A stretch of DNA of 64,000 nucleotides from contig JBPOHN010000012.1 in the NCBI GenBank assembly GCA_052035525.1, positions 208,784 through 272,783 on the forward strand. Direction: 5' to 3'. Under the pieces are notes generated by a model. The model did no database searches and had not been told where the DNA came from. It worked only from the letters and a program-made list of their open reading frames with translations. This DNA is from Armatimonadota bacterium. GTDB lineage: Bacteria > Armatimonadota > UBA5829. A program made the translations under genes and the position numbers. Every line of letters begins with the position of its first letter. Position 1 is the first letter of the stretch. Shown here piece by piece: positions 31,251-36,850 of the stretch.

Positions 31251-31293
31251 TAACGACACGCTGCGGCGCTACCTGTGACCGAAAGAATGCTAT

Positions 31294-31321
31294 CTGGGTG
31301 GCGATTTCCGAATCACCACCC
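31294..31321. repeat. REP-like palindrome, copy 2 (CTGGGTGGCGATTTCCGAATCACCACCC)
   Basis: Direct observation. Confidence 0.6.
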
Positions 31322-31394
31322 TCCCGTCAGCGTTGACAGACAACGCCAGCCGCGTGATAATGCACATGCACACCGCCGGCGCGCGAGGAGTCCT

Positions 31395-32453
31395 ATGACC
31401 ACTGACGATGAGTTCGGCACCATCCAGGAACTGGCACAACTCGTGGATGAGGCCTATGACGAGCAGCGTTGGGACGACGTCATCCGCCATTCCGATCAGC
31501 TCACCGGGCATCTGGAGGGAAACGCGCTCCGCAGCCTCCTCCAATTACGCGGGCACGCGTTCGAGCACAAGGGCGAGCACGCCAGGGCGCGGCAGTGCTA
31601 TGAGGCTGTCCTCAAGCTGCCGGCTGACGAGAGCACGGGGGATACGTGGTACGCGCTGGGGAACGCGTATTGCGAGAGCGGCGATCACGACAAGGCCCTG
31701 GAGAGCTATAGCAAGGCCCTTGACACTCCAGGTTTCACGCAACCGGGCATGGCGCTGGAGAACATGGGTGTTGCGCTGTTTCGCAAGGGCGGCTACGCGG
31801 CCGCAATCGAGCATTTCCAAAGGGCGTTGGACACCCCCGGCTGTGAGGGCGCAGGGAGCCTCTGGTGCGCAATGGGCGATGCGCATGCGGAACTCGGCGA
31901 GATTGCTGCTGCCATCGAGTGCTATGAGACAGCCGCGGCGGCGCCGGGATACGCGGATCGCGGAACAGCATGCTTCAACCTGGGCCACACGCTGAACAAG
32001 GCCGGCGATTACGACAGAGCCATCGAAAGTTGCCACAAAGCTCTCGAAGCCGGTTACGACAGTCCCGGACGCGCCTGGCAGAACATGGGCATATCCTACG
32101 GCAGGAAAGGCGATCTTCACAAAGCCATCGACTGCTATCGGGAGGCGCTTCGCGCCCCCGGTTGTGATAACGCCGGCACCGTCTGGTTCAACATGGGCGC
32201 CTGCCACCTGGAGCAGGGAGACTACGACCAGGCGATCGAATGCAACCTCAAAGCGCTCGACACCCCTGGCTTCCAGCACGAAACCGACGCCTGGAACAAC
32301 CTCGGCACGTGCTACCACCGCAAAGGTAACCTCGCCAAAACCAAAGAATGCTACGCTAAGGCCGACGGCGACACGAACGCCAAAACCAACCCGTCCCCCG
32401 CACCCGGCATTCTCTCCCGGATCATCTCCACCCTCCGCAACTGGCTGAGATAG
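31395..32453 (+). CDS. TPR-repeat protein (seven ~40-aa repeats)
   Basis: Repeated W.N.G......GDYD.AIE.Y..AL..PG units. Start taken at MTTDDEFG because upstream codons overlap the REP copy. Confidence 0.75.
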   Translation: MTTDDEFGTIQELAQLVDEAYDEQRWDDVIRHSDQLTGHLEGNALRSLLQLRGHAFEHKGEHARARQCYEAVLKLPADESTGDTWYALGNAYCESGDHDKALESYSKALDTPGFTQPGMALENMGVALFRKGGYAAAIEHFQRALDTPGCEGAGSLWCAMGDAHAELGEIAAAIECYETAAAAPGYADRGTACFNLGHTLNKAGDYDRAIESCHKALEAGYDSPGRAWQNMGISYGRKGDLHKAIDCYREALRAPGCDNAGTVWFNMGACHLEQGDYDQAIECNLKALDTPGFQHETDAWNNLGTCYHRKGNLAKTKECYAKADGDTNAKTNPSPAPGILSRIISTLRNWLR

Positions 32454-32495: not shown

Positions 32496-32554
32496 CTGGG
32501 TGGTGATTTCCGAATCACCACCCTACAACCCCACGGGAGGGATTTCCGAATCCC
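32496..32554. repeat. REP-like palindromes, copy 3 (CTGGGTGGTGATTTCCGAATCACCACCC, 32496-32523) plus mini-copy GGGATTTCCGAATCCC (32539-32554)
   Basis: Immediately upstream of the RAYT gene. Confidence 0.6.
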
Positions 32555-32572: not shown

Positions 32573-33115
32573 ATGGCAAACCGATACAAGGTCATCCAGG
32601 GAGGTCCCTATCCGCACCTGATCACTTGCACGATTGTCAGGTGGCTCCCCGTGTTCATCTCGGGCCCGTACTTCCGCGTGCTCACCGACAGCCTCCGGCA
32701 CTTGCGGGAAAACCGAGGCCTGATGATCCATGCGTATGTGATAATGCCCACCCACCTGCACGCCATAGTCACCGCGACCGAGGACGACCTGTCAGATATC
32801 GTGCGCGACTTCAAGAAGTTCACGTCCAGAGCGATCTACGAGCTTGCCGAGCAGTCAGGCAACGTCCTGCTTACGTGGATGTTCGAGCAGGCGGCAAAGA
32901 AGCAGCCTCACAGCCGCTTCAAGGTCTGGCAGGACGAGTTCCACCCCAAGGCTCTGTCCGGTGAGGAGATGATGAGGCAGAAGGCGGAGTATGTGCACGC
33001 GAATCCGGTTCGCAAAGAGCTGGTTATGGAGCCGGAGAAGTGGTATTACTCGAGCGCATCATTCTACGCGGGGAAAGCGACCGGGCCCGTGCCAATCGAC
33101 GTGCCTGAGTGGTAG
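32573..33115 (+). mobile_element. REP-associated tyrosine transposase (RAYT; IS200/IS605 TnpA-like Y1 HUH transposase)
   Basis: HUH motif IMPTHLHAIV and catalytic Tyr region EKWYYSSASFY. 180 aa; flanked on both sides by REP palindromes. Confidence 0.8.
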
Positions 33116-33120
33116 CTGTG

Positions 33121-33172
33121 CCGGATTCGGAAATCCGGCTGGAGCAGTGGGGTGGCGATTCGGAAACCGCGG
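33121..33172. repeat. REP-like elements, copy 4 (CCGGATTCGGAAATCCGG at 33121-33138, plus degenerate GGGGTGGCGATTCGGAAACCGCGG at 33149-33172)
   Basis: Immediately downstream of the RAYT gene. Confidence 0.5.
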
Positions 33173-33248: not shown

Positions 33249-34130
33249 CTATCCCGCGAATCTTGGGTCCGGCGCCAGATCCTTGACACGAGGGAGCACA
33301 CCCGCGTATGGGTACTGACCTATGCTGCCGCGCAGAACGAGCGGCATCGTGTTCGGAGAGTCTCGGTAGAAGGCAACCATGGTCGCCATATCACCGTACC
33401 CCAGTCCAGCGCTATCATTGATCATCGTGCACAGCTCCGTAAGACGGTCCTTCAAGACTTCATCGAGAACGGCTCCGTGTGGGTGTAGCGGCCTTTCTGC
33501 CTTGGAGTGAATTCGCGCGGTATAGATGTCTAGTCCCAGCTTCCTGTAGATTACACCGTATGCCTCCTCTGCGATGCACGGGACTAACAGGAACTCGGAG
33601 AATCGTCCTAGAATGCATTCACGCATTCTACTGTAGTGAGCGGTGAATTGCTTACCTGTGGAACAGAAGTCATCAACGTAGACGATGGCACCGTTTTTGA
33701 CCTTCTGGGTCAACTTTGCGAAGTCGGAGGCGTTGGAGTCCACGAAGTGACACTTCAGCCGCTCAAGCCGCCCAAGCCGCCCAGCTCGCTTTAGCAGATC
33801 CAACATTACGGGGCTACTGCTCGCCGCGTCATGAACCTGCACATAGATCACGTTCGCTGGCGCAATACCATCCCGCTGAAGTTCCTCTAGCAGGGCTGTG
33901 TTTTGCGTCACAAGCGCGTCTGCGGTCGCTTTCCTGGAATAGTAGATCACATGATCCAGTAGAAGTAACAAAGCGTGCCAATCCTTGACGTCAAACTTGC
34001 GCAGCCACTGCATGACCGATGCGTGGGTAACGGGCTGCGGCTCATAGTCAGGGAAACGCCGTGCTACCCGCCACGCTCTGTACATCATCGTTGCCGTGTT
34101 CAGCAGCCTAACGTAGCCAACACTCATCAT
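33249..34130 (-). CDS. PRTase-fold domain protein, function unknown (third gene of the Dam/ParB-like operon)
   Basis: PRPP-loop-like GAIVYVDDFCSTGKQF. Start ambiguous between 34130 (MMSVGY) and 34088 (MMYRAW). A paralogue-like motif occurs in the 12262-13161 protein. Confidence 0.5.
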   Translation of the reverse strand: MMSVGYVRLLNTATMMYRAWRVARRFPDYEPQPVTHASVMQWLRKFDVKDWHALLLLLDHVIYYSRKATADALVTQNTALLEELQRDGIAPANVIYVQVHDAASSSPVMLDLLKRAGRLGRLERLKCHFVDSNASDFAKLTQKVKNGAIVYVDDFCSTGKQFTAHYSRMRECILGRFSEFLLVPCIAEEAYGVIYRKLGLDIYTARIHSKAERPLHPHGAVLDEVLKDRLTELCTMINDSAGLGYGDMATMVAFYRDSPNTMPLVLRGSIGQYPYAGVLPRVKDLAPDPRFAG

Positions 34131-35148
34131 CGTCTTCGGCGGGTTCGTCCCCCGCAGCCAATCTCGCGAGCAGAGTATCAACGTAAGCTCTGACCTGCTC
34201 TAGCGCATCCACAAGCTCCTGCCTCTGATCAACAGTGTACTCAAGCTTATAGCGGTCCAGTGCCTGCCTGAAAGAGGTGCACGCGTTCAGGGCTGTCTGC
34301 GTCTGCCGACCCTCGGTGACGAACTCGTCGAAGGCCATTCTGGTCTCCAAATCCATGTTCAGTATGTATTCCCTTAGACGTGCTTTTACCGCCTCCAAGC
34401 GCGCTGGATCCTCACGGCTAAAGGCGAAAGCCTCCAGGATCCTCCGGAAGTGTATGACGCTCTTGATTTTCCCCGCTCGCTTCTTAGCAACCAACCTATC
34501 CGTGATGTTGTCGCGCCCACCGCATTCTGCCACAAACTCCGGCATCTGCTCCTCACACAGCGAGAGGACTGGGTGTGCTTCTATCCAGAAGTTGGATGCC
34601 ACGCGCTCGTTCTTGTCCGGCAGCAACGATAGAGCCTGGAAGCGTTCGGGGAACTGCAGCAGGATCATGCACCGCTCGAGTTGCTGCTCGCTTGCACCGG
34701 TCAACTTTGCCAAGGTCTTGACGTCTGTCTCCTTGAGTTCCTCCATCACAGCTTTTAGGCTTAGGGCAGTTGGCATCAATTCCCACTGCTCCCGCAGACT
34801 ATGGATAGAGAACATATAGAGAAGATTGGCAGCGGTCGAAGGCGGATCGACAACGTTCGCGGGTATTCTGATGTCGTGCCCTTCCTCGCTGAGTTCGCAG
34901 CAGCACTTGTACCTTCGCTCACCGTCGAGTATGGCGTGCTTGCTTTGCCCAGCAGGCATATACACTGTAAGCGGCACTAGCACTCCGTGTTGCGCGATGC
35001 TCCTCTTGAGTTCATCCAGCGGCTCACGGTCAAACAGACGCCGCGGGTTGTATGGGCTGGGCCTGATGTCCTGGGGGCGTAGGTCCTTAAGTGTGCCGGT
35101 AGGCACAACACGTTCCGGCGTATTCGCTCTTGCTCTGCTAAACAACAT
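34108..35148 (-). CDS. ParB/Srx-fold (ParB N-terminal domain) protein
   Basis: DIRPSPYNPRRL...LDELKRSIAQHGVLVPLTVY...ILDGERRYK gives ParB box I and the box II GERRxR arginine patch. The C-terminal 200 aa are unassigned. Confidence 0.7.
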   Translation of the reverse strand: MLFSRARANTPERVVPTGTLKDLRPQDIRPSPYNPRRLFDREPLDELKRSIAQHGVLVPLTVYMPAGQSKHAILDGERRYKCCCELSEEGHDIRIPANVVDPPSTAANLLYMFSIHSLREQWELMPTALSLKAVMEELKETDVKTLAKLTGASEQQLERCMILLQFPERFQALSLLPDKNERVASNFWIEAHPVLSLCEEQMPEFVAECGGRDNITDRLVAKKRAGKIKSVIHFRRILEAFAFSREDPARLEAVKARLREYILNMDLETRMAFDEFVTEGRQTQTALNACTSFRQALDRYKLEYTVDQRQELVDALEQVRAYVDTLLARLAAGDEPAEDDDECWLR

Positions 35149-35980
35149 GGCTCTGTAACCTCCGCGCGCCAGGCGTGGTGTTGTATATCAGCACCTCACC
35201 GGACTCTCCACGCCTCGCAGCGAATCCGGCGATATTTCGTTTCACTGTTACCTTTTCGGCCTCAAAGTCTTTTCGAAGAGCTTCGGCTTCGGCACAATCC
35301 GCGTAGCTGACTAGAAACGCAATGTTCCTCTCGGCTAACGACTCCATCCAGAAACGCAGCCGTGCGAGATCACTGGGGCCAAACACGGTAGGGTTGTATT
35401 CCGCGAACACCCGTCGGTTGGCTACACTGAAAGGCGGGTCCATATACACAAAATCCCCGGGCTCTGCCAGCTTCAGCACCCCCTCAAAGTCGCCCTGCAC
35501 AAGCCGCGCTGTCCGCAGCAGCCTGGAGCACTCGGACAATGTACCCGGAGAAGGGAGATTGCCCGCCTTATCTCCACCATAAGGCACGTTGAATTGGCCT
35601 GCCGCGTTGGTTCGGTACAGCCCGTTGAAGCAAAACCTGTTCAGATAGATGAACCGTGCGGCCCGTTCCGACGGGGTAAGCCGTTCTGGGTCAAGACTGC
35701 GAAGGCGTAAGTACTCCTCACGGCCTTTTTTCAGCCGAAGCAGATGTTCGGCAACGACGGCGGCTTCCTTCTTGATCGCGCGGTACGTCTGGATCAACTC
35801 CGCGTTAGCATCGCCCAACAGGGCTTTCCTAGGCCGCAGCCTGAAATAGAGGCATGCAGAACCGGCAAACGGTTCCAGGTAGCGGTCGTACCCGTCACAC
35901 CAGTAGCGCTCTAGGATCGGCAGAAGCTGCCGCTTACTGCCAGCCCACCGCAGGAAAGGTTGTGCTCGACTCGCACTCAC
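35138..35980 (-). CDS. Dam-family (D12 class) N6-adenine DNA methyltransferase
   Basis: FLRWAGSKRQLLPILERY (motif I region), DPPF (motif IV), and ...NRFCFNGLYR... Start moved to GTG 35980 because the long-ORF N-terminus overlaps a REP copy. Confidence 0.75.
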   Translation of the reverse strand: MSASRAQPFLRWAGSKRQLLPILERYWCDGYDRYLEPFAGSACLYFRLRPRKALLGDANAELIQTYRAIKKEAAVVAEHLLRLKKGREEYLRLRSLDPERLTPSERAARFIYLNRFCFNGLYRTNAAGQFNVPYGGDKAGNLPSPGTLSECSRLLRTARLVQGDFEGVLKLAEPGDFVYMDPPFSVANRRVFAEYNPTVFGPSDLARLRFWMESLAERNIAFLVSYADCAEAEALRKDFEAEKVTVKRNIAGFAARRGESGEVLIYNTTPGARRLQSHVV

Positions 35981-36231
35981 TCGGTCCCCCAAGCTCTTGG
36001 GCCCGCCGCTGCTCTTGGTCCAGATGCCAGGCGGCCGCTCACAGAACGATCTATGGCAGTATAGTCGAATCGTGCCACCTTTGCAAGCGGGCACTTGGTG
36101 GCGAACTTGGTGGCGAACGCGCATAGGCAAATGCCAATCACTTCGCTGCTTGGGACAGAACAACAGCCTGAGCACAGAGGTGGGGACGCCCATGACCCGG
36201 CGGCAGAAGCGGCGGGTTCTTCCTCTTCCCT

Positions 36232-36259
36232 GGGGTGGCGATTTCGGAATAGCCACCCC
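36232..36259. repeat. REP-like palindrome, copy 5 (GGGGTGGCGATTTCGGAATAGCCACCCC)
   Basis: Direct observation. Together with copy 4 it brackets the Dam/ParB-like/PRTase operon. Confidence 0.6.
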
Positions 36260-36595
36260 ACAACCGCGCAATTGACGGCGGTTTCCCCTCAAAACAAACC
36301 GTAACACGGGCAAAAAAGTGCATTTGCGTGCATTTGGGCGCAAAAGGGTGCCGTTTCATACAATCGTCAACCGATTTCACCGAATCCCTGGCCGATTGAT
36401 CTCGCCCGCCCACTCCCTCGTTCACAATTCCAGCCCCACCTGCCCACGCCCCATCCATTGCTCCACGCTCAGACACCCCGTAATGCCGCACACAGACAAT
36501 CCAAACTCTACAATCTAAAATCATCAATCCCTCTGGTTCGTTCCTTCGCCCCGCCAGTTCGTTCCCCCGCCCCGCCCGGCCCCTCCGCGTCCAAT

Positions 36596-36658
36596 CTGCA
36601 ATCACAGATCCAAAATCTGCAATCGACTGTCGACAACCGCCAGTTAACATGCTATACT
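36596..36658 (+). promoter_or_regulatory. Near-consensus promoter TCGACA-17-TATACT (36630-36658) preceded by direct repeats AATCTGCAATC x2, 22 bp apart
   Basis: -35 at 36630-36635, -10 at 36653-36658. It drives a ~185-nt leader containing a 10-bp inverted repeat (AACAAACTCA ... TGAGTTTGTT, 36758-36815) before the EEP gene. Confidence 0.45.
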
Positions 36659-36850
36659 GTCTGCATGAACAACCGAGCACACACAACCACCACTCCTTCC
36701 CACCTCGCAGCCTTCGACTTGGAGCTTGCCACTCCCGCAAGGGATAATGTTGCAAAACAAACTCAATCACTGCGGCATCTGAGCGTGAAACAGCCTCGCC
36801 TGAGCGTGAGTTTGTTCCATGCATTACGAACTCATAAGGGCTGGTTCACG

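Follow-up and report, generated by a model that had tools for sequence, protein, structure and literature searches.

A three-gene methylase–ParB–phosphoribosyltransferase cassette from an Armatimonadota bacterium, a putative restriction-modification-like abortive-infection or addiction module

The window, as we call the whole stretch of 64,000 nucleotides analysed here (Armatimonadota bacterium, contig JBPOHN010000012.1), contains a real, self-contained three-gene cassette on its minus strand, at positions 33249-35980. It consists of three tightly packed open reading frames behind a single promoter-like site, which encode a Dam-like methyltransferase, a ParB-domain protein and a phosphoribosyltransferase (PRTase)-fold protein, as the original prediction had it. 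The stop and start codons of successive genes had also been said to overlap. This is the case for the first junction, where the ATG of the ParB-like gene (35148) overlaps the stop codon of the methylase gene (35138-35140) by 11 nt. At the second junction, it is true only if ATG 34130, the start used by automatic gene callers, is chosen (23-nt overlap with the ParB-like gene); the other start, ATG 34088, lies 19 nt past the ParB stop codon and agrees with the length typical of the family, about 276 amino acids.

A consensus scan found a candidate promoter (TTGCAA-17 nt-TATACT, 36058..36086, minus strand; a consensus match only) about 75 nt upstream of the start codon of the methylase gene. Similar -10-like boxes (TATGAT/TATGCT) are present in the homologous loci of acidobacteria, about 40–45 nt upstream. 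The immediate neighbours of the operon are a RAYT gene (32573-33115, 111 bits against NF047646) and a gene for an Exo_endo_phos protein. An Rfam scan of the window gave no match.

The cassette is bracketed by REP copies and adjoins the RAYT gene, as had been noticed. The REP palindrome, GGGTGGCGATTTCCGAATCACCACCC, has copies at 31296, 32498, 33147 and 36230. The copy at 33147..33170 is located between the stop codon of the PRTase gene and the RAYT gene, and that at 36230..36261 is upstream of the operon promoter; no strand is assigned to either of these flanking features. The segments 33147..33170 and 36238-36261 form an inverted pair of 24 nt, 88% complementary and 3067 nt apart. The half-site TTCCGAATCGCCACCCCA (at most 3 mismatches) has five matches in the window, all between 31.3 and 36.3 kb, for 0.1 expected from shuffled sequences. 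These flanking copies are at most putative parts of the system.

The first gene (35138..35980, minus strand) codes for a Dam/DpnM-like N6-adenine DNA methyltransferase of 280 amino acids (D12 class, alpha group), which is recognised by Pfam (PF02086, D12 methyltransferases; E = 4.5e-39, 135 bits, cutoff 22), NCBIfam (TIGR00571, dam; 196.1 bits, cutoff 114.85) and PADLOC (MTase_II; E = 5e-68). The GTG start codon at 35980 follows a GGGGGA sequence, and the resulting length matches that of the homologues (267–274 amino acids). The motifs FLRWAGSKR, EPFAGS and DPPF (the latter at 35429-35440) are all present. Scores above the curated cutoffs, SAM-binding and catalytic motifs and their alpha-class order thus bear out the predicted assignment to the Dam family.

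The solved chain nearest to the methylase is that of DpnM (2dpm, 3.9e-46), followed by E. coli Dam (5.5e-25). Residues N120, L122, R124 and P134 of E. coli Dam are kept in the family, K9 is replaced by R, and R137/Y138 are replaced by G/D family-wide. Because the positions equivalent to R137/Y138 differ, GATC is a candidate target at most; the enzyme probably methylates adenine in a short, GATC-like site. The window shows no avoidance of GATC, whose observed/expected ratio is 0.88.

The second gene (34108..35148, minus strand) encodes a ParB/Noc/KorB-type protein of 346 amino acids (Pfam ParB_N, E = 8.7e-13). Its N-terminal nucleotide-binding ParB/Srx domain, which includes the predicted box II motif GERRYK (34906-34923), is followed by a helix-turn-helix and by a C-terminal helical domain peculiar to the family, some 160 amino acids long. 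The last 200 amino acids had been described as unassigned. This has to be corrected, since a ParB-type helix-turn-helix lies at residues ~120–175; therefore only the helical domain of ~160 amino acids is left without assignment.

By sequence and by structure, the ParB-like protein is closest to Noc, Spo0J, ParB and KorB, which are CTP-binding clamps, and it keeps the nucleotide-binding motifs GERR and NPR. The top structural match is KorB, a transcriptional repressor. The fold of the N-domain, the NPR and GERRxR(A/C) motifs and the helix-turn-helix that comes next are common to all these proteins. The ENLQRE motif of the clamps, whose catalytic glutamate is E111 in B. subtilis, corresponds to SIH(N/S)xRE in the family of the window protein: a histidine is invariant at the position of the glutamate, in close as well as in distant members. 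For this reason, clamp-type CTP cycling should not be assumed for the ParB-like protein. It also differs from ParB/Spo0J, Noc and KorB in that it has a different C-terminal domain, is linked to a methylase and an effector, and has no ParA, no parS, no membrane-targeting helix and no KorA partner. No PADLOC 2023 model matched it, and searches of Pfam, PADLOC and NCBIfam detected no nuclease domain or motif in either the ParB-like protein or the PRTase.

The third gene (33249..34088, minus strand, or from the alternative start at 34130) encodes a PRTase-CE protein of 279 amino acids. It aligns with positions 1–250 of the 253 of Pfam PF24390 (PRTase-CE; 77.3 bits, cutoff 27; E = 2.2e-21) and contains the motif VYVDDFCSTGKQF, in agreement with the predicted PRTase fold. 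PF24390 is carried by all 120 PRTase homologues among the matches listed. The PRPP-loop motif, YVDDFCSTGKQ, is at 33648-33680, and the DD/TG PRPP loop is intact. Across 31 PRTase sequences YVDDFxGTGxQ is invariant; the invariant motifs of the family are DD, GTGxQ, HDAGSSSP and Gx14PNTxP. An AlphaFold2 model of the protein (pLDDT 90.4) retrieves the type I PRTases OPRT, HGXPRT and UPRT with Foldseek (probability 1.0). The modelled protein is thus predicted to have a type I PRTase core, with the acidic pair and the T/S-G PRPP loop. Its best E-value against the PADLOC models of retron PRTase_III-A is 2.2e-16 (range to 4e-11), and by sequence it appears to group with the effectors of type III-A retrons, not with biosynthetic PRTases.

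About 47 of 63 genome loci, from more than 10 phyla, keep the three genes in one order and orientation. They represent Acidobacteriota, Verrucomicrobiota, Chloroflexota, Nitrospirota, Gemmatimonadota, Latescibacterota, Bacteroidota, Cloacimonadota, lineages of the candidate phyla radiation (Parcubacteria, Saccharibacteria), Bacillota, Betaproteobacteria and Armatimonadota. Independent gene calls give the same order. The original prediction had named co-location in other genomes as a check; because the arrangement recurs in dozens of unrelated genomes, it is far beyond chance. The trio is especially common in Acidobacteriota and other little-studied soil lineages. More than 1,000 close homologues of the ParB-like protein were found in a word-indexed search, and the wider family, in a profile search, comprises 162 clusters at 50% identity (E <= 1e-30). 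The three proteins have correlated pairwise distances (r = 0.78–0.89, Mantel p <= 0.001).

The genes around the trio are variable: 91 Pfam families were counted among 81 neighbours, with no fixed fourth gene. Defence genes occur among the neighbours, which include a type IIG restriction-modification enzyme, Mrr, AbiEi/AbiEii, PD-T4-6, TIR, AIPR, DndB, HerA-like DUF87 and TniQ; toxin-antitoxin pairs are frequent. One copy of the cassette (IMG/VR contig) has a phage lysozyme gene on one side and an integrase gene on the other, which is an accessory position of a prophage. A search for shared palindrome half-sites or k-mers near the operons of 44–49 loci found none beyond the expectation from shuffled sequences. 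Sequence-specific reading of DNA by the ParB-like protein is therefore unproven.

The sister clades show that the parts of the cassette are exchanged. Among distant members of the ParB family, a gene lies directly 3' of the ParB gene in 56 loci, and it encodes PRTase-CE in 25 of them. In 30 of the 56 loci, the protein encoded after ParB has about 275 amino acids and joins a REase-like domain at its N-terminus to a HEPN-like one at its C-terminus. The motif RNxxxH is present in 24 of 26 group-B proteins of this kind. The HEPN-like proteins give weak matches to DUF4145 (in four members, best E = 6.6e-5), HepT and Apea. The methylase is of the D12 class in 51 of 80 loci, and genes of other DNA methylase families (N6_N4_Mtase, UPF0020) are near many of the remainder. 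The recognition helix of the ParB-like protein co-varies with the type of methylase and with the type of effector. This co-variation, and the correlation of the protein distances, could result from shared descent alone.

Loss and decay of the genes follow several routes. The effector gene is lost or frameshifted, with methylase and ParB genes intact, in two loci (L009, L034) and in a strain variant of the window organism (L080). In L062 and L063, the methylase alone survives beside a stump of ParB. Three other loci (L003-L005) have intact ParB and PRTase genes without a methylase, and a 16S rRNA gene is at the position of the methylase; a whole ParB-PRTase subclade also has no methylase nearby. 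Methylation is thus no universal requirement for tolerance of the pair.

The original prediction recognised no described system in this combination of genes, which holds for the PRTase version and not for the general theme. Indeed, operons of HEPN, ParB and DNA methylase genes were tabulated in 2013 (Biol Direct 8:15, Table 1; PMC3710099). The 2013 operons and the cassette share one theme, in which a toxic effector accompanies a DNA methylase and a member of the ParB superfamily; the window operon likewise joins a ParB-superfamily gene to a DNA methylase gene, and the arrangement with a HEPN-like third gene is seen in the sister clades of the window protein. The effector of the window operon is PRTase-CE, in contrast to the HEPN (Rx4-6H) protein of the MAE_28990 family in the tabulated operons. 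The HEPN-like proteins of the sister clades have no precomputed Pfam domain and do not match a MAE_28990 model, so that they are at most putative members of the 2013 family. In 2013 the association was entered as one line of a table, with no mechanism or experiment (PMC3710099), and no later mention of it was found in the searchable literature. Neither PADLOC 2023 nor the searchable literature contains the PRTase version of the cassette.

In type III-A retrons, the effector is from the same PRTase clade, and the PRTase of Retron-Eco11 causes abortive infection with PRPP depletion (PMC12746101). The window PRTase has the PRPP loop and the Gx14PN(N/T)xP motif, which reads Gx14PNNxP in retrons (PMC12746101), but it ends after the PRTase core and therefore has no counterpart of the winged helix found at the C-terminus of the retron effector. 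The window operon, with three genes only, also lacks the reverse transcriptase and the ncRNA of the retron. No reverse transcriptase is among the top 25 Pfam families of the neighbours, the commonest of which occurs in only 3 of 81 neighbours. The role of sensor and regulator, played by the reverse transcriptase-msDNA complex in the retron, would fall to the ParB-like protein and the methylase.

PRTase-fold proteins are also the toxic or essential component of other small defence operons, as in ShosTA, DS-32 (NADAR and PRTase) and Ophion (rSAM, PHP and PRTase) (PMC11961720; bioRxiv 10.1101/2025.01.08.631726; bioRxiv 10.1101/2025.09.30.679545). Their partners, DprA-like ShosA, NADAR and radical-SAM/PHP proteins, are missing from the window operon. 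The window PRTase scores 27.6 bits against NF053875 (DS32_1 of NCBIfam), whose cutoff is 250, and has no ShosT match in PADLOC. The sensors of the DUF262 branch (GmrSD, SspE, DndB and NsnA of Menshen) have a ParB-superfamily NTPase domain and a DNA-binding domain, sense (modified) DNA and are coupled to effectors (PMC12065111). The window protein has the same succession of domains, but it is of the canonical ParB_N/GERR type (DGERR) and not of the DUF262/DGQxR type of GmrSD, SspE and Menshen NsnA, and the partners of that branch, an ABC ATPase and an HNH domain, are not in the cassette. Finally, the cassette resembles type II restriction-modification systems of the DpnII/Dam (GATC) type by its methylase, close to DpnM and Dam, by the position of the methylase gene at the head of a compact operon, and by the persistence of orphan methylases when the cassette decays. 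The trio differs from them in that it has no recognisable restriction endonuclease, the place of which is taken by a metabolic enzyme.

We infer from these data that the trio is, on balance, probably a horizontally mobile, restriction-modification-like module of abortive infection or addiction. A modification-dependent defence or addiction module had been proposed tentatively at the outset, and the part swapping, the kinship with retron effectors, the prophage copy and the defence neighbours support it. Neither of the two outcomes named at the outset as refuting the proposal was obtained: the three genes are co-located elsewhere, and the ParB-like protein lacks the partners of a partition ParB. 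The kept gene order, the correlated protein distances and the decay of the effector beside an intact methylase and ParB also speak for the module. Against this reading, defence genes are only mildly enriched nearby (about 6–8 of 81 neighbours), many neighbours are housekeeping genes, the ParB-like protein matches no PADLOC 2023 model, and some ParB-PRTase pairs have no methylase.

The methylase would place m6A on host DNA, at a short site, as a mark of self. The ParB-like protein, the constant core of the family, would read DNA through its helix-turn-helix and its nucleotide-gated N-domain. If methylation blocks loading, it would load only on unmarked DNA, either incoming or newly unmethylated, and it would control the PRTase through its family-specific C-terminal helical domain, which implies that the two proteins interact. 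The PRTase would be the toxic effector: once released or activated, it would consume PRPP or otherwise derail nucleotide metabolism, and phage replication would halt, or growth would stop in cells after loss of the cassette. A more daring version, which we put forward only tentatively, is that a canonical ParB-type, nucleotide-gated DNA clamp serves innate immunity as a sensor. Loading on DNA without the m6A mark of the cassette, it would switch on interchangeable non-nuclease or RNase effectors (PRPP-consuming PRTase, HEPN) via its private C-terminal domain.

The cassette may instead be purely selfish, acting by addiction (post-segregational killing) like a toxin-antitoxin module, with no dedicated anti-phage role. 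The PRTase would be the toxin, the ParB-like protein the antitoxin and autorepressor, and the methylase the source of an epigenetic memory that is diluted once the cassette is lost, so that killing sets in. Such a module would be compact and translationally coupled, with co-evolving components, and patchily distributed over many phyla at variable insertion sites, which is what is seen; the methylase-free ParB-PRTase pairs resemble two-gene toxin-antitoxin systems, and toxin-antitoxin pairs are frequent neighbours. We nevertheless consider this explanation unlikely. No conserved operator or palindrome indicative of autoregulation was found upstream, and the PRTase-CE/HEPN swap and the prophage accessory position are typical of defence, even if toxin-antitoxin modules can show both. 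The toxin-antitoxin and abortive-infection roles are not mutually exclusive.

True restriction-modification is a little less probable still. The ParB-like protein would be the R subunit, cutting or nicking DNA; if restriction failed, the PRTase or HEPN protein would step in as a suicide effector in the second line. The label used in 2013 was "ParB nuclease", a ParB-like fold is listed among the endoDNase domains of restriction-modification systems (PMC3710099), and reports of DNA nicking by proteins of the ParB/Srx superfamily are cited in PMC12839542; the invariant histidine in place of the catalytic glutamate allows for a different chemistry. However, the nearest relatives are CTP-binding clamps whose nucleotide-binding motifs are kept, no recognised nuclease motif was detected, and the third gene of the sister clades brings its own REase-like domain.

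It is quite improbable that the trio serves (hyper)modification or epigenetic regulation of host DNA, in which the ParB-like protein would aid a base-modifying enzyme (as DpdB does for DpdA) or act as a methylation-sensitive, KorB-like transcription factor, and the PRTase would make or install an unusual nucleotide. ParB-family proteins do assist the Dpd and Dnd systems (PMC12839542), the repressor KorB is the top structural match and PRTases form N-glycosidic bonds. But the PRTase is replaceable by a HEPN/REase-like protein in sister clades, and therefore fits poorly into one biosynthetic pathway; it clusters with toxic retron effectors, its gene decays frequently, and no other modification genes are conserved nearby.

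That the trio is a remnant or variant of a ParABS system for the partition of plasmids or chromosomes, to which two passenger genes were added, is effectively refuted. The N-domain, with its GERRxR arginine patch, and the helix-turn-helix are clearly of the ParB/Noc type, but a tblastn search with a Soj/ParA probe (validated as AAA_31, 3e-76, and CbiA) found no ParA in 73 loci (~7 kb flanks) or in the 64-kb window, and the operons share no parS-like palindrome and no fixed fourth gene. Among 72,556 plasmids and 50,697 phage records, no full-length family member occurs. In place of the canonical dimerisation domain at the C-terminus there is another helical domain, and the protein is coupled to a methylase and an effector.

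If the trio is indeed a restriction-modification-like abortive-infection or addiction module, it would be an immune or addiction system of wide distribution that has yet to be catalogued. If the ParB-like protein is moreover a clamp-type sensor, immunity of the restriction-modification-like kind would have a new principle of sensing, common in soil phyla in which almost no defence systems have been studied. The module would join DNA-methylation self-marking, ParB nucleotide-switch clamps and suicide effectors that deplete PRPP or act as RNases, hitherto studied apart, and would give ParB-clamp biology a role beyond the handling of chromosomes and plasmids. Since the sensor is constant and the methylase and effector are swapped, the cassette would be a clean modular system for the coupling of effectors to a sensor of DNA state. 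One carrier, Paracidobacterium acidisoli 4G-K13 (locus L037), is cultured and the cassette is only about 2.8 kb, which makes the hypothesis directly testable.

The original prediction described three minus-strand genes, coding for a methylase, a ParB-like protein and a PRTase, and all three ORFs are present in the window. The locus is also carried by NCBI assembly GCA_964391295.1 and by several Logan assemblies. The first (35138-35980, minus strand, with a GTG start preceded by GGGGGA) codes for a D12-class N6-adenine DNA methyltransferase, which is recognized by Pfam D12 (E = 4.5e-39), PADLOC MTase_II (E = 5e-68) and TIGR00571 'dam' (196 bits vs a cutoff of 114.85). Among solved structures it is nearest to DpnM (3.9e-46) and E. 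coli Dam, both GATC enzymes. GATC or palindrome avoidance was considered as a clue to the specificity of the methylase and set aside, the observed/expected ratio of GATC in the window (0.88) being uninformative. The second gene (34108-35148, minus strand) codes for a protein with a Pfam ParB N-terminal domain containing GERRYK. It starts 11 nt ahead of the methylase stop codon, as expected from the predicted stop/start overlap. The third gene, PRTase-CE (Pfam, 77 bits vs a cutoff of 27), ends at 33249 on the same strand. Its best-fitting start is ATG 34088, because the homologues are about 276 aa long; gene callers prefer ATG 34130. The predicted overlap between the ParB-like and PRTase genes depends on this choice: it is 23 nt long with ATG 34130 and disappears with ATG 34088, which lies 19 nt past the ParB stop.

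A promoter-like sequence, TTGCAA-17-TATACT, matches the consensus at 36086-36058 (minus strand); together with it, the cassette covers ~2.9 kb (33249-36090). Automatic gene callers lengthen the methylase to 351 aa, through the promoter and the repeat palindromes (REP); this extension, which has no counterpart in homologues, is probably an over-call. They also propose a 228-aa protein without Pfam match at 36138-36824 (minus strand). An Rfam scan of the window for retron-like or other RNA found nothing.

The structure of the ParB-like protein is modeled with confidence (pLDDT 86). Among PDB entries, the family profile matches Noc, Spo0J and ParB, with an alignment that extends through the helix-turn-helix, while the helical domain formed by residues ~180-335 has no specific structural match. 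Both nucleotide-binding motifs, NPR and GERR, are invariant. The family has SIH(N/S)xRE in place of ENLQRE, with an invariant histidine at the position of the catalytic glutamate of ParB.

The PRTase model (pLDDT 90) resembles type I PRTases, and the acidic pair and TG loop (YVDDFxGTGxQ) are invariant. The top matches in defence databases are retron type III-A effector models (E = 2e-16), and the window protein has the Gx14PNTxP motif, which was reported to be specific to retron-associated PRTases (PMC12746101). A tandem 9-nt duplication (GGGCGGCTT twice, 33765-33782, minus strand) adds three residues (GRL) that are absent from other family members; a strain variant of the window organism (L080) has a single GGGCGGCTT copy.

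More than 1,000 full-length proteins are homologous to the ParB-like protein (53-61% identity). A scan limited to a single genome from each species gave 64 loci, of which 63 are relevant, and it bears out the expectation that the three genes are co-located elsewhere: about 47 of the 63 keep all the genes intact, with methylase, ParB and PRTase following one another on one strand and with tiny spacers, about 6 are interrupted where a contig ends and about 10 have decayed. The same arrangement is found in independent gene calls carrying precomputed Pfam labels. The hosts are mostly Acidobacteriota; the others belong to Verrucomicrobiota, Chloroflexota, Nitrospirota, Gemmatimonadota, Latescibacterota, Bacteroidota, Cloacimonadota, Parcubacteria, Saccharibacteria, Bacillota, Betaproteobacteria and Armatimonadota. 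The only cultured carrier is Paracidobacterium acidisoli 4G-K13 (L037; NZ_QVQT02000004.1, within 493673-508662). The three genes are inherited together, and the pairwise distances of their products correlate (r = 0.78-0.89, Mantel p <= 0.001). The flanks vary from locus to locus (91 Pfam families in 81 immediate neighbours, each in at most three), and a conserved fourth gene, sought among these neighbours, was rejected.

Defence genes make up roughly 6-8 of the 81 immediate neighbours (type IIG restriction-modification enzyme, Mrr, AbiEi, PD-T4-6 and candidate PDC systems). AbiEii, TIR, AIPR, DndB, integrases and toxin-antitoxin pairs occur nearby at other loci. The trio is also found on four IMG/VR contigs. 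In one of these viral contigs (L071; 3780-4256, 6096-8832, 9050-10297), it lies between a phage lysozyme gene and a tyrosine integrase gene, where prophages typically carry accessory ('moron') genes.

Decay tends to begin with the effector. The PRTase is truncated or frameshifted in L009 and L034, where the methylase and ParB genes are intact. Similarly, in L080 (1932-2783; Logan run SRR19732724) a 1-nt insertion causes a +1 frameshift and a 182-aa PRTase product, and the methylase and ParB genes are intact; this may be either a natural or an assembly variant. In L062 and L063 the methylase is kept beside a ParB stump. L059, which has no methylase, is a counter-example. So are L003, L004 and L005: the place of the methylase, just ahead of intact ParB and PRTase genes, is taken by an entire bacterial 16S rRNA gene (1566 bits; 6083-7616 in L003, at the beginning of the contig in L004 and L005). 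Either the methylase has truly been replaced, or the contigs are chimeras assembled at the rRNA gene. Four loci taken at first for distant trio variants (L065-L068) are in fact decayed pseudogene copies.

Searching 1.84 billion cluster representatives with a profile (E <= 1e-30) extended the ParB-like family to 162 clusters, most of them full-length (310-335 aa). The full-length distant members retain the NPR, DGERR and NIH..R motifs and the helix-turn-helix. In a sample of 80 metagenomic loci of distant members, 56 have a third gene on the same strand as ParB, at most 150 nt after it, and the identity of this gene is swapped between clades: it is PRTase-CE in 25 loci, a protein of about 275 aa without Pfam annotation (group B) in 26, and a member of a second HEPN-like group, with RNx4H, in 4. 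Group B proteins show weak matches to PD-(D/E)xK nuclease families at the N-terminus (AHJR-like 4e-4, CoiA_nuc) and to the HEPN clan at the C-terminus (DUF4145 in four members, with a best E-value of 6.6e-5, above its cutoff; HepT-like_2; HEPN_Apea). The HEPN assignment follows from these weak Pfam matches and from the RNxxxH motif, present in 24 of the 26 proteins. Searches of the PDB and PADLOC gave no meaningful match for the third gene of these sister clades.

The arrangement D12 methylase-ParB-275-aa protein is also seen in independent gene calls, beside HerA-like DUF87, TniQ and DndB genes. In L163 (2112-3821, 7155-10528) and L165 (6896-10273, 10646-12043), the HEPN-type cassette lies beside a HerA-like DUF87 ATPase and an unannotated partner, with a HATPase_c_3 protein and TniQ in L163 and a DndB-like gene in L165; these surroundings look like a defence island.

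The methylase is exchanged as well. Of the 80 distant loci, 51 have an adjacent D12 methylase; 16 examined loci without it have neighbours that include five N6_N4_Mtase, three divergent D12 and two UPF0020 methylases, some transcribed divergently from ParB. The recognition helix of ParB varies among subclades in step with the methylase type and the effector. The subclade with FMFNIHHF... (helix-turn-helix FTGVSRSxIRRCKxLLW; L141, L142, L146, L148, L153, L156) has a PRTase-CE partner and no recognisable DNA methylase nearby; its ParB-PRTase pairs would represent the system in a two-gene form. The 352-aa protein that follows the PRTase in L148 has no PDB match and no methylase motifs. Immediately ahead of a ParB-PRTase pair that has no D12 methylase, L149 (4006-5693) encodes a restriction endonuclease of the MvaI/BcnI family (E = 1.6e-59) and an SPPY methylase; they may be a separate restriction-modification system or a source of methylation for the pair. 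A 400-aa metagenomic protein (P0301), a single case in which ParB residues ~1-190 and the PRTase-CE core form one polypeptide, was considered as a Rosetta-stone fusion and given no weight, because it is probably the product of an in-frame deletion that merged neighbouring genes rather than a functional fusion.

On balance, comparative genomics makes it probable that the cassette combines restriction-modification logic with an output of the abortive-infection type. The methylase would mark self DNA. The ParB-like protein, the one constant part, would sense the state of DNA by means of its helix-turn-helix and nucleotide-gated N-domain, loading in a methylation-sensitive manner, and its private C-terminal domain would control the effector by direct contact. 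The PRTase would be the toxic output, by analogy with Retron-Eco11, whose PRTase, once activated, reduces PRPP and makes infection abort (PMC12746101), and with ShosT, a second PRTase analogue (PMC11961720). PRPP depletion could then protect against phages.

A purely addictive module, similar to toxin-antitoxin pairs, is an unlikely alternative. A scheme in which the ParB-like protein is a nicking 'R' subunit, with the PRTase as a back-up, seems slightly less plausible still, and a role in host DNA modification or in a regulatory pathway is improbable. Partition can be dismissed: a ParA probe validated as AAA_31/CbiA has no match within ~7 kb in 73 loci or across the window, there is no full-length family member in 72,556 plasmid or 50,697 phage records, and neither exact 7-10-mers (within 250 nt on either side of 47-49 operons) nor 6+6 or 7+7 palindromes with 0-4 nt gaps (+/-1.5 kb of 44 operons) exceed the shuffle expectation. 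A conserved operator or parS was rejected on the strength of these k-mer and palindrome counts, and the search for upstream sites returned only promoter-like TATGAT boxes, in some Acidobacteria only.

Compared with known systems, the trio has no restriction endonuclease and is therefore not a type II restriction-modification system; it has neither reverse transcriptase nor ncRNA, and is therefore not a retron. It differs from the ShosTA and NADAR-type PRTase systems, whose ShosA and NADAR partners are missing. GmrSD, SspE and Menshen use ParB domains of the DUF262 type (PMC12065111), whereas the ParB-like protein of the window belongs to the canonical GERR type. No model in PADLOC 2023 covers it. 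What comes closest in earlier work is a single row in Table 1 of Anantharaman et al. (2013; PMC3710099), on an association of HEPN, ParB and DNA methylase, without later mention in the searchable literature, where neither a combined ParB and PRTase system nor any use of the Pfam name 'PRTase-CE' was found. The view that this combination matches no described system is thus upheld. The effector domain is already known, and the theme of modification-linked defence with a suicide effector is well established; the ParB-clamp core and its combination with a PRTase, a putative system, are undescribed. Judged from its genes, the cassette appears to work like restriction-modification-linked abortive infection, outside every catalogued family.

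The trio adjoins a RAYT, the tyrosine transposase gene associated with REP (32573-33115, plus strand). REP palindromes (GGGTGGCGATTTCCGAATCACCACCC) occur at 31296-31321, 32498-32533, 33120-33170 and 36230-36261. The half-site has five matches in the 64-kb window, all at 31.3-36.3 kb, for 0.1 expected. One inverted pair encloses the RAYT and another the three-gene cassette, which is bracketed by REP copies (33147-33170 and 36230-36261) as first proposed, the neighbouring RAYT being REP-flanked too. A gene for a multi-TPR protein (31275-32453, plus strand), directly upstream of the RAYT, also has REP copies at both ends, one at its start and one just beyond its stop.
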